IMG/VR virus record: IMGVR_UViG_3300019472_000035
Span: 1-64,000 of that record
DNA from: a virus
Reading direction: 5' to 3' (one strand)
DNA: 64,000 bases
The notes beneath the pieces were generated by a model. That model saw nothing but the letters and a program-made list of their open reading frames with translations. It was not told the DNA's origin and made no database searches. Below, piece after piece: positions 51,088 to 64,000 of this stretch. Every line of letters begins with the position of its first letter. Position 1 is the first letter of the stretch. A program made the translations under genes and the position numbers.

Positions 51088-51105
51088 ACGAAAGTGAGAA
51101 AACAA

Positions 51106-52296
51106 ATGAACAACACAACAAAAACAACAATTTTATCCGCAGTATTCGCAATGGCAACAATGGGTGCGTTCGCAAATCCAGTTGCGTTTGGCTCTTTAGA
51201 ACCCTCTGCCGTAAACCCAACCGTTAATGGTTATAATTCTGTTGCCGTTGGTGCAAACACAAGTATTAATGGTACAAATACAATCGTTGTTGGTCGAGAT
51301 AATACGGTTAATGGTGACGATAATATCATCCTAGGGGGTGGCAACGGTACAATCACGGCAAACCAAACGACTGTACTTGGGTATAATAATTACGCTGGCA
51401 ATCATCAAGAACAAACCATTGTTGGTGCAAACAACACGTTGGATGCACAAGGTGCAATCTCCGTTGGTACACACAATGTTGTCCGTGGTATGGATGCCGT
51501 TGTAATTGGCAACAACGCATCTGCCCCAGTACAAAATTCTATTGCGGTTGGTACAAATTCTCAAACGTATGAACCTAAGGGGTTTGGTCAAATGGACATC
51601 AACGGAACAACACACGTATTCGCTGGTGAAAACCCTAATTCTACAGTTAGCTTCGGTTCTAAAAAGTCTGATACCTATAGCCACATAGATAATTATAGCC
51701 GACAATTGCAGAATGTATCTGCTGGAAGAATCCAAGCAGATTCTTTAGATGCAGTCAATGGTTCTCAATTGTATGCAGCCATTGATGAAATCAATACAAA
51801 CGGTACACGTATTACCAATCTCACCACACAGGTAAACACAATTAATGGTCGTGTGGCAACCAATACCGCAGACATCCGTGCAAACGAACACGCAATTCTT
51901 GACCATGAACAACGGATTACCACATTGGAAAGTCATGGTCAACAACTGTTGGGTGACATTGATAATAAAATCAATCAATTGGAACGTGGCACAAACCACG
52001 CTATTGCATCCGTATCTGCCCTAAGTGCATTACATTGGAATGGTTTCGATGCACATAATAAATTTTCTCTAAGTGCTGGCTTTGGTCATTACAAAAATGC
52101 AAACGCTGGTGCATTGGGTGCGTTCTATGCACCGAATGAAAACATCATGTTTTACGTTGGTCAATCTTTTGGTTCTGCTAAGGTAACAAACGCATCCGTT
52201 AATTTCAAAATCGGTAAAACAACGAATGTCAAACGTGATGAATTAAAAGAACTAAAAGAACGTGTTGAAATGTTGGAAAATCTATTGACGAAGTAA
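51106..52296 (+). CDS. YadA-like trimeric autotransporter adhesin-like protein with a signal peptide, head repeats, neck, coiled-coil stalk and YadA-type anchor, plus a 26-aa C-terminal extension
   Basis: Signal MNNTTKTTILSAVFAMATMGAFA. Repeats of N.VGANTSINGTN..VVG type. Neck DAVNGSQLYAAIDEIN. Anchor AIASVSALSAL...FSLSAGFGHYKNANAGALGAFYA...VNFKI. Confidence 0.65.
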   Translation: MNNTTKTTILSAVFAMATMGAFANPVAFGSLEPSAVNPTVNGYNSVAVGANTSINGTNTIVVGRDNTVNGDDNIILGGGNGTITANQTTVLGYNNYAGNHQEQTIVGANNTLDAQGAISVGTHNVVRGMDAVVIGNNASAPVQNSIAVGTNSQTYEPKGFGQMDINGTTHVFAGENPNSTVSFGSKKSDTYSHIDNYSRQLQNVSAGRIQADSLDAVNGSQLYAAIDEINTNGTRITNLTTQVNTINGRVATNTADIRANEHAILDHEQRITTLESHGQQLLGDIDNKINQLERGTNHAIASVSALSALHWNGFDAHNKFSLSAGFGHYKNANAGALGAFYAPNENIMFYVGQSFGSAKVTNASVNFKIGKTTNVKRDELKELKERVEMLENLLTK

Positions 52297-57524: not shown

Positions 57525-57552
57525 TTGACACAAAACTACCGTATGGTATAAT
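57525..57552 (+). promoter_or_regulatory. Promoter P1 AATACTTGACA-N16-TGgTATAAT
   Basis: Consensus -35 and extended -10. Its -10 lies in the left arm of a 24-bp inverted repeat (57531-57558 / 57585-57610). Confidence 0.7.
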
Positions 57553-57649
57553 GTAATCAACGACAGGGAAATAACCCCAAGTCAGAACATTATATCATAC
57601 GGTAGTTTTGTTTATCGTAATTAATCTTTAAAAATTCTCAAATTAATAC

Positions 57650-62447: not shown

Positions 62448-62868
62448 GGACATCGAAATTAATAACCAAGGTGCAGCCGTTGTAGAACCCAAAAATAAGA
62501 AACCAAAAATGCCATTACGGTATCAACTAGAGATGGAATTATTAGCGAACCAAAACTCACGTTTGCTGGAGCAACGGAATAAATTATTGGATATGGTCGA
62601 ACGGTTACAATCTACGGAACATAAACCAGCAGATGTCAAAATCGAAATGATGCAAACACCAGCTGGATATGTCAAAGTCGGTGATGTGATTGGGTACGAC
62701 CGCAGTAATAAACGTATCCGATTTGGTACTGTTAGTAAGCTAAATAAAGCTGGAGTGATTTGGCTGACACATTCGTATTGCGTTGTGTTTGGTGACGATG
62801 GCAAACAGGCGATTTACCAATCGATGGATGGTGCTATTGAGCGGTATCGTGTATGCAAGGTGTTATAA
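62446..62868 (+). CDS. Hypothetical protein (last gene of the long + operon)
   Basis: 140-aa ORF. Confidence 0.55.
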   Translation: MDIEINNQGAAVVEPKNKKPKMPLRYQLEMELLANQNSRLLEQRNKLLDMVERLQSTEHKPADVKIEMMQTPAGYVKVGDVIGYDRSNKRIRFGTVSKLNKAGVIWLTHSYCVVFGDDGKQAIYQSMDGAIERYRVCKVL

Positions 62869-62962
62869 TCCAATAATGCACAACCCAATTCCAAAAAATT
62901 AAAAACCAAAAAATAAAAAACAAGATTTCAAAAAATAAAACGCAGAATTTTCATAATTCGTG

Positions 62963-62992
62963 TTGACGTTTACAATCTTGATATGGTATAAT
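62963..62992 (+). promoter_or_regulatory. Promoter TTGACG-N18-TGgTATAAT (same TATGGTATAATG family)
   Basis: gtgttgacgtttacaatcttgatatggTATAATg. Confidence 0.65.
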
Positions 62993-62998
62993 GTGGTT

Positions 62999-63179
62999 GT
63001 CGGTGGTTAGTCACCTCTATAATATGTCTAATTTATACACTACAAAACAAAAACCACCTTCATTAACTCGTTGTGTAGTCAATCGAAACCACCGACAAAC
63101 ATTTGATATAAACCACGGTATATCACGGTAACACCACCGTTTGGTGTGACCATTGTCCACGATACCGTGGTCTTTTTTT
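62999..63179 (+). ncRNA. Candidate ~180-nt small noncoding RNA (promoter to terminator, no ORF with RBS)
   Basis: A 12-bp perfect long-range stem TTGTCGGTGGTT (62997-63008) / AACCACCGACAA (63087-63098). Then a compound terminator hairpin ACCACGGTAT...ATACCGTGG (63112-63170) + T8. Confidence 0.5.
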
Positions 63180-63660
63180 ATGTCTATACATATGAATGAT
63201 TGTCCATGTGTTCATCCATGTGTTGCACGTGGTCAATCTACGGTGCGTACCATCATCACATACATACGCACATATCAAACAATATCTAATGTTTGCACAT
63301 ATTACATATATTCCACATAATAAATACGTTGACCGCATCGCACGCTGCATCCATTATTAATACCATTGATAATACCATGTGTGACAACCATAATTAATGC
63401 CGTTCGTATGACCATGTGATACAACCCATGTATCAACCACATGATATTCTATGATGATAATACCAATAAAATCCATTCTATGGCTCTCTGTGGTGCGTTT
63501 ACACGAAGTGACGTATGTTTATATACCCCACCTATTTTAAACGCCATATAACGCAAATAAACGAATTTTCGTATATCTCCACGGAATTTTTAACCCTATA
63601 TATACATATGCTACCCCATATATAATAAACAATGATTATCACCACGGATTTTTTATTTAT

Positions 63661-63724
63661 AGATACATATATATATACATATGTCCACCTATTTTTTAAT
63701 ACATATGTATATATATATGTATCT
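63661..63724. repeat. Perfect 24-bp inverted repeat AGATACATATATATATACATATGT / ACATATGTATATATATATGTATCT separated by 16 bp
   Basis: Direct reading; (TA)n-rich palindrome in the noncoding junction region. Confidence 0.7.
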
Positions 63725-64000
63725 ATTTGTTTTTTCATCGGTACTTCTAGTTGACCGCCCAAGTCGTTCTCAATGCGTTCTCAATCAGTAGTCACACGCT
63801 GCACACACGACCATTCCATGGATTACTTTTTGTAATACACTCATGCGTTTTAATCAATCGAAGAAATTCAATATATTTATATCGAATGTTTTCTATATGG
63901 TTGCATACAATAGGAATATACAAAATCGTTCTATGGTGTAGACAATTGAACACAACTATAATTATAACAATTGTATTGTATACAATATAATAACGTACGT

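Follow-up and report, generated by a model that had tools for sequence, protein, structure and literature searches.

A candidate small non-coding RNA gene with its own promoter and terminator in a frequent lineage of human-associated phages

Results

Organisation of the locus

The DNA analysed here, referred to as the window, covers 64,000 bases out of the 68,569 bp of a phage genome (IMG/VR record IMGVR_UViG_3300019472_000035); the Logan (SRR6059110) and JGI (Ga0242631_100005) contigs are identical over the region compared. Close to the end of the window, on the plus strand and downstream of a gene whose stop lies at 62868, a promoter, a long-range helix and an intrinsic terminator follow one another, and an initial annotation had flagged them as a candidate for a structured small RNA of ~180 nt. 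The neighbouring genes, both upstream and downstream, gave no Pfam or PHROG annotation, and the gene context therefore offers no functional clue. The features of the locus are:

62880-62953, plus strand: A-tract-rich upstream element with three CAAAAAAT(T/A)AAAA units, at -119 to -46 from the predicted start
62963-62992, plus strand: sigma-70-type promoter, with -35 TTGACG (62963-62968), an 18-nt spacer and extended -10 TGgTATAAT (62984-92)
62999-63008, plus strand: 5' arm of helix P1, GUCGGUGGUU, beginning at the predicted start G62999
63009-63086, plus strand: P1 interior, 78 nt here and 69-90 nt in relatives, C/A-rich and G-poor (8% G)
63039-63079, plus strand: hairpin P2, ACUACA (63039-44) with UGUAGU (63074-79), and a 20-27-nt loop
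63087-63096, plus strand: 3' arm of P1, AACCACCGAC
63097-63111, plus strand: single-stranded A/U-rich linker, AAACAUUUGAUAUAA here and AACCAUUUNAYAUAA in most relatives
63112-63179, plus strand: two-tier intrinsic terminator, with basal stem 63112-21 / 63162-71, apical stem 63127-36 / 63142-51 and U7 at 63173-79
32498, 43678, 57525 and 57650: other promoters of the same family, with a shared extended -10

The promoter belongs to a phage-specific family

The near-consensus promoter that had been proposed (TTGACG-N18-TGgTATAAT) was recovered both by reading the sequence and by a pattern scan, exactly where it had been placed. Its hexamers match the consensus at 11 of 12 positions, in addition to the TG extension. 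The pattern TTGAC-N15-19-TGNTAYAAT occurs three times in the window against an expectation of 0.17, a number reached in none of 100 shuffles, while a looser version gives seven matches against 1.05 expected, and all of these fall within the non-structural part of the genome, at 32.5-63 kb. Five of these seven share a common extended -10, TATGRTAYAAT or TCTGATATAAT, and a sixth such promoter lies ahead of the next gene cluster, just past the end of the window. The phrase 'family-type early promoter' is thus a fair description, since the family is shared and is confined to the non-structural half (32-63 kb). Two of the members, starting at 57525 and 57650, stand in tandem with no ORF between them; there, an element at 57588-57611 is the reverse complement of the spacer/-10 region of both promoters, forming perfect inverted repeats of 16 and 13 bp.

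In relatives of the phage the hexamers remain TTGACR and TAYAAT, and the TG is retained in all but one, with the hexamers persisting even as the spacer occurs in two unrelated versions. The A-tract element upstream is nearly invariant in 23-27 relatives (95-98% column identity) and is the best conserved part of the 1.6 kb compared. It is possibly an UP element, a stretch of curved DNA, a protein-binding site or a DNA-unwinding element.

A clamped, largely unstructured interior followed by a compound terminator

The perfect 12-bp long-range helix enclosing ~78 nt that the initial annotation described is present in the sequence as read: TTGTCGGTGGTT (62997-63008) and AACCACCGACAA (63087-63098) are perfectly complementary inverted copies, with the arms 78 nt apart. 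Across the window, ~12 loci hold a perfect inverted repeat of 12 bp or more around a loop of at most 100 nt, against ~0.5 in shuffles, and the other loci are mostly terminators or are associated or overlapping with promoters. The gap between promoter and helix had been put at ~8 nt and is in fact 4 nt between the -10 hexamer and the start of the helix. Placing the start site by the customary 7-nt spacing after the -10 hexamer gives G62999, which falls inside the repeat, so that the helix in the RNA (P1) is probably 10 bp long (62999-63008 / 63087-63096). A longer P1 reaching into the -10 region (22 nt with 82% complementarity) was considered and set aside, as inspection of the relatives gave no compensatory pattern.

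The P1 arms can pair in all 27 sequences available (98.9% of cells paired), and seven of their ten pairs show no variation, against a background of turnover in the enclosed sequence. The changes that do occur comprise one G-C to A-U double change (in two sequences), one A.C exception and two U.G wobbles. The distance between the arms ranges from 69 to 90 nt across relatives, and this variable spacing fits an RNA helix better than phased protein sites on double-stranded DNA.

Between the arms lies the least conserved segment of the unit, with a mean pairwise identity of 72%, and it evolves at about the rate of unconstrained sequence. Its identity between relatives does not follow that of the flanks (r = 0.11), and the interior is therefore mosaic. 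Its poverty in G is not specific to the RNA, given that the flanking non-coding DNA is likewise G-poor. Predicted folding of the interior is weak (-2 to -8 kcal/mol, mean z = -0.6), whereas the whole RNA folds at -48.5 kcal/mol (z = -3.5). The description of a structured RNA of ~180 nt was accordingly half right: P1, P2 and the terminator are supported, and the 78 nt enclosed by P1 are nearly unstructured.

P2 is a weak hairpin that cannot be aligned across variants and was judged from individual folds. By this measure, a hairpin occupies its position in the minimum-energy fold of ~24 of the 27 variants, built from differing sequences: ACUACA/UGUAGU, ACUACG/UGUAGU, ACUACG/CGUAGU, UACAC-ACUA/UAGU-GUGUA and ACACGGC/GUUGUGU, which include the series A-U, G.U, G-C. 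Its loop contains CCUUCAU (63057-63063), and the motif CCUYYAU is absent from just 2 of the 27 variants.

Downstream of P1, the linker is unpaired in every fold computed, and column identity over 63100-63119 is 96%; it may serve as a seed or as a chaperone-binding site. The compound terminator that had been proposed resolves into two tiers and a T run. Its basal stem pairs ACCACGGTAT with ATACCGTGGT (63112-21 / 63162-71) and carries an apex at 63127-63151, after which come a C and T7. The basal stem is unchanged in 25-27 of the 27 sequences and the 3' internal loop, UUGUCCACG, is invariant, while the apical stem has double changes at six pairs, with several alternative solutions. A terminator scan also reported a small alternative hairpin at 63157-63170, followed by the T run. 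The same scan found no other terminator between the stop of the upstream gene (62868) and 63112, so that the terminator of the unit also ends the upstream operon.

Conservation and covariation among relatives

Conservation in related genomes, on which the small-RNA proposal had been made to depend, was found throughout: the unit lies at the same locus, as a single copy, in all 27 distinct relatives found in human-associated metagenomes. The 27 distinct versions were aligned by a covariance model, which returned exactly one copy per genome, and neither this model nor BLAST detected paralogues of the RNA in the phage genome. Mean pairwise identities by segment are as follows:

Upstream gene, 3' part: 80%
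130 nt upstream of the start: 92%
Helix interior: 72%
Linker and terminator: 89%
150 nt after the terminator: 83%

The promoter region (92%) and the 3' domain (89%) are therefore under tighter constraint than the neighbouring protein (80%), although in a family this shallow part of the conservation is shared ancestry.

In the 27-sequence alignment fitted to the structure model, 95.1% of cells are paired. Double changes occur at nine pairs, compared with 2.2 +/- 1.1 in column shuffles (nine being reached in 0 of 500) and with 0-3 in controls in which the partner had been slid. Six of the nine lie in the terminator apex, two in P2 and one in P1, where covariation thus amounts to a single pair with one violation, counted on the model-fitted alignment. 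RNAalifold, making its own structure prediction from the relatives as the initial annotation had suggested, independently recovered P1 and both tiers of the terminator. Furthermore, read on the minus strand, the wobbles of P1 (U.G) and of the terminator apex (G.U) would turn into A.C mismatches. With a family of ~80-90% identity, the covariation evidence is modest.

Coding potential

The sole ATG-initiated frame had been given as 17 codons without a ribosome-binding site. It in fact runs for 35 codons (63024-63131), and the lack of a Shine-Dalgarno sequence holds. The ATG of the window is ACG in most relatives, and indels disrupt the frame. ATG-initiated ORFs occur in just 10 of the 27 variants, in differing frames and lengths, two variants contain no ORF of at least 10 codons, and the length differences of the interior are not multiples of 3. 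No ORF is conserved across the 27 variants.

Family membership and candidate targets

At the gathering threshold, Rfam 15 matched five tRNAs and nothing else in the whole window. A permissive Rfam scan of 62800-64000 gave a single hit over the unit, to MIR827 (16.7 bits, E = 6.7). As predicted from its sequence, the unit has an independent promoter, ends in a rho-independent terminator with a U-tail and lacks an ORF, as expected of a trans-acting, chaperone-dependent sRNA.

Several more specific classes were tried and rejected. A type III toxin-antitoxin RNA of the ToxI kind does not fit, as there are no tandem repeats in 62999-63179 and ~1.0 kb downstream is free of genes. A retron msr-msd would account for the inverted repeat, but no gene lies within 1 kb downstream and no reverse transcriptase was found among the 40 ORFs scanned, which are part of the genome's total. 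All 27 variants keep the same G-poor strand, which speaks against an invertible segment; a MITE is contradicted by the presence of just one copy in the phage and by the lack of BLAST similarity between the unit and the 29 matches to its structural pattern in species-representative genomes; and the polarity of the arms, on inspection, is opposite to that of an integron attC site.

Target prediction against phage sequences, which the initial annotation had put forward, yielded a best duplex within the range of shuffled queries: in the phage-genome duplex-energy scan the best value was -29.8 kcal/mol, against -31.1 +/- 1.6 kcal/mol for shuffled queries. Exact complementary words in the phage genome are at chance level, and no complements of the linker or of the internal loop were found at phage start codons. 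A 16-nt site at 63876-91 is complementary to the linker of the window and is conserved in relatives; it does not covary with the linkers of those relatives and is therefore probably a coincidence. Read by eye, the interior has at least one 4-mer complementary to the Shine-Dalgarno sequence (CCUC, UCCU or CUCC) in 25 of the 27 variants. Our own estimate from base composition puts the expected share at ~57%, and since the variants are phylogenetically non-independent this represents a mild enrichment only.

The gene-free region downstream

The region after the terminator is itself conserved and free of genes for 1.0 kb, covering 63180-64000 and ~220 nt past the window (8735-9775 in contig L159), and includes a 37-nt tandem pair at 63348-63421. 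Operator-like palindromes (TTGTATACAA) surround a promoter near 63964-91, and at least seven independent assemblies break within the region. We regard it as a candidate origin or control region.

The phage and its likely host

The phage encodes Pol III alpha, DnaG, DnaB, a T7-like SSB, a C5 methylase, ThyX and a dUTPase. Its large terminase (561 aa) reaches an identity of only ~35% to the best GenBank phage, and no DNA similarity to the genome was found among ~50,000 GenBank phage records. Searches of species-representative bacterial genomes with the neighbouring protein and with the structural DNA pattern returned chance matches only, and hence no prophage copy was found; none of the 29 pattern matches in those genomes is BLAST-similar to the RNA unit. 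The lineage is very frequent in human-associated metagenome assemblies, with hundreds of assembled genomes of ~68-72 kb. Our best reading is a virulent-type phage of an uncultured, diderm, human-associated host.

The diderm assignment draws on a YadA-like trimeric autotransporter (51094-52296, plus strand) with head, stalk and membrane-anchor domains, which is 81-97% conserved in at least 120 relatives and implies a host with an outer membrane. Its nearest named bacterial homologues come from Klebsiella, Pseudomonas and Bartonella; these proteobacterial matches are just 28-42% identical and repeat-driven, and the host call is not decisive for that reason. Counts of uptake sequences gave no pointer to the host either. 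The Chi-like octamer GSTGGTGG occurs eight times on the plus strand (1078, 15031, 18961, 23620, 31526, 31934, 47039 and 50317) and not at all on the minus strand, against ~0.7 expected, a bias that hints at a host with RecBCD, i.e. a proteobacterium and not a Firmicute.

Other features of the genome deserve mention. Restriction-site avoidance is extreme across the window (observed/expected: GATC 0/251, GGCC 0/71, GCGC 0/53, CGCG 1/61, CCGG 5/81) and extends to 6-mers (TTCGAA 0/14, GATATC 1/25, GAATTC 2/21, ATCGAT 1/20, AAGCTT 0/6); CCWGG likewise has a count of 0 in the window, for which no expectation was computed. A tRNA cluster at 42670-43515 contains five Rfam tRNA matches against three by ARAGORN (Ser-GCT, Thr-TGT and Ser-TGA), the extra Rfam matches (42670-42727 and 43459-43515) being just 57-58 nt long. 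A second large gene-free region, of ~2.5 kb and low GC, spans positions 1-1900 of the window and ~600 nt before it (13277-15764 in contig L159), precedes the minus-strand gene (1901-2431) of a 176-aa tyrosine recombinase, and contains a perfect 20-bp inverted repeat (1561-1580 / 1609-1628).

Discussion

A probable stand-alone gene for a trans-acting RNA

The proposal that this unit specifies a small RNA is supported by our analysis. We assign a probability of roughly 55% to its being a stand-alone gene for a trans-acting non-coding RNA of ~176-181 nt (62999 to ~63177, plus strand), made by the host RNA polymerase. Its layout matches the usual plan of such RNAs: a strong promoter of its own, a shielded 5' end, C-rich single strands left exposed, the conserved A/U-rich linker and a strong hairpin with a U-tail. 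As a gene the unit is well supported, and it would constitute a new RNA family of a known kind. A separate promoter from this family serves the next gene cluster, ~0.7 kb downstream, and the promoter of the unit is thus not needed there.

According to the mechanism that we propose, the host RNA polymerase would transcribe the unit strongly from the onset of infection, and the ends of the RNA would be shielded by P1 and by the terminator. The RNA would then act in trans, most likely with its unpaired C-rich segments CACCUC and CCUUCAU, both resembling the anti-Shine-Dalgarno sequence, or the linker pairing with purine-rich ribosome-binding regions of host mRNAs. Linker, hairpin and U-tail may together form a module for stability and for binding a chaperone of the Hfq or ProQ type. 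In a close alternative, the clamped loop would titrate a single-stranded-RNA-binding protein. Against a seed in the interior stands the fact that the usual location of a seed is here the least conserved part.

If transcribed, this would be a signature small RNA of a common human-associated phage lineage that has no cultured relative. To our knowledge, phage-encoded small RNAs with an assigned function are still few. Its promoter and terminator are both clean and 27 variants exist in nature, so that the unit offers a ready mutational series for studies of targets and chaperones; the promoter and terminator would also be usable as parts.

Alternative explanations

The unit may instead be part of a replication origin or of another DNA-level control element, in which the promoter activates, primes or shields and the RNA is a by-product or primer; the terminator would then keep RNA polymerase from entering the origin. 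We consider this reading unlikely. With the unit begins a gene-free stretch of 1.35 kb, which shows 78-95% conservation among relatives and contains iteron-like repeats (CCATGTG ~6 times by eye, TCCATGTGTT twice, TGATAATACCA twice and the 37-nt tandem pair) as well as a perfect 26-bp AT-only palindrome (63659-63726), and it is this combination that makes a role connected with an origin conceivable. Three invariant A-rich 13-15-mers just upstream resemble a DNA-unwinding element, DnaB, DnaG, Pol III alpha and SSB are all phage-encoded, the genome has no assigned origin, and the sign of the GC skew switches at the unit. However, the skew switch is equally explained by the absence of genes, no initiator gene is adjacent and the neighbours have no family match. 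The strong terminator lies 480 nt ahead of the AT-rich palindrome, and the transcript consequently stops short of it; the transcript-primed origins that we know of (T7, T4, ColE1) have no such terminator. The covariation of P2 and of the terminator apex at the RNA level, together with the strand-specific wobbles, argues, like the terminator, against a primer role.

There is also a slim chance that P1, linker and terminator form a scaffold displaying a fast-evolving, G-poor, unstructured loop of 70-90 nt, which would itself be the active part. Such a loop could be a decoy for a host factor binding single-stranded RNA, for instance Rho, Hfq, a ribonuclease or a defence nuclease; it resembles a rut site in its length and its excess of C over G, as would suit Rho, and has A-rich ARN-like runs, as would suit Hfq. 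Alternatively, it could act as a strain-specific determinant, different in each of the phage lineages that circulate together. A role of either type would account for the exchange of the loop independently of its flanks.

The unit is unlikely to be a cis-acting leader like those of lambda PR'-tR' ('6S RNA') or HK022 put, in which transcription would terminate after ~180 nt unless antiterminated. Here a phage factor or the folded P1 domain would render RNA polymerase resistant to the terminator and so give access to the downstream genes. In lambdoid late leaders a promoter is followed by a terminator with no ORF, and this arrangement is found in the unit. The downstream genes are all on the same strand, with the structural genes starting ~8 kb downstream on the circular map, and the 5' arm of P1 could, by inspection, pair with six consecutive bases of the 5' arm of the terminator (AACCAC). 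Nonetheless, the next gene lies ~1.0 kb past the terminator and has its own family promoter (TTGCAT-N17-TATGGTATAAT) with palindromic operator-like sites, no Q-, N- or other antiterminator-like protein was found in 40 ORFs searched against Pfam (10 also against PHROGs), and the alternative hairpin at 63157-70 with its U-tract would still terminate transcription. An antitermination leader resembling the lambda 6S RNA is improbable on these grounds.

It is at similarly long odds that the unit has no separate function at all, the terminator merely ending the 43.7-62.9 kb operon, with the promoter and helix carried along and tolerated because the phylogeny is shallow. A terminator is required at this point in any case, as no other separates the last gene from 63112; divergence within the family is only 10-20%, and the interior evolves about like unconstrained sequence. 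This reading is weakened by the conservation of the promoter, whose hexamers and TG survive replacement of the spacer and which fits the promoter family of the phage itself. Identity over the 130 nt that precede the start is 92%, compared with 80% for the adjacent gene, and the P1 arms stay invariant at seven of ten pairs amid turnover between them. Finally, the notion that the unit codes for a small protein, which has the 35-codon frame in its favour, is for practical purposes excluded by the missing Shine-Dalgarno sequence, the change of ATG to ACG and the lack of any conserved ORF.

Comparison with known systems

[quoted passage not shown] 2024, PMC10914365, which cites Chevallereau 2016, Gerovac 2021 and Bloch 2021 for phage ncRNAs). 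These candidates are abundant RNAs of 90-210 nt that run from a promoter or processing site to an intrinsic terminator, lie at operon ends or close to the ends of the genome, show conservation only within a genus and lack a known function (PMC10914365). The unit described here is alike in size, boundaries and promoter-to-terminator layout. They are, however, supported by RNA-seq and Northern blots, whereas the unit is a prediction from sequence and comparison. The PAK_P3 RNAs are processed 3'UTRs, while the unit has its own consensus promoter and adds a 5' clamp helix around a hypervariable loop; it has no sequence or Rfam relationship to any of these RNAs.

A second point of reference is provided by chaperone-dependent trans-acting sRNAs, for example DicF and the StxS RNA from lambdoid PR'-tR'. 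The unit shares with them an own promoter, a rho-independent terminator, a U tail of at least 6-7, the lack of an ORF and an A/U-rich single strand immediately 5' of the terminator hairpin. It differs in that its 5' end is locked in a helix instead of forming a free seed, and in that no conserved seed with a target in the phage genome was identified.

With the 6S leader of lambda PR'-tR' the unit has in common a promoter, ~180-190 nt without an ORF and a strong terminator; on the circular map it also precedes the morphogenesis genes and shares their strand. In contrast to the PR'-tR'/Q system, its downstream genes are ~1 kb away with their own promoter and an antiterminator gene was not recognised; nor does it contain the two-hairpin motif of the HK022 put RNA.

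The pRNA of the phi29 family (RF00044) is similar in its length of ~170-180 nt, its early promoter, its 5'-end helix and interior loops that diverge strongly between relatives. In phi29 pRNA, however, the two ends of the molecule pair with each other, whereas in the unit the partner of the 5' end is the internal segment nt 89-98. A pRNA of this type was rejected, as there is no match to RF00044 and the phage, with its ordinary 561-aa large terminase, is not phi29-like. On present evidence, therefore, the unit extends a known category of phage RNAs and reveals no new one.
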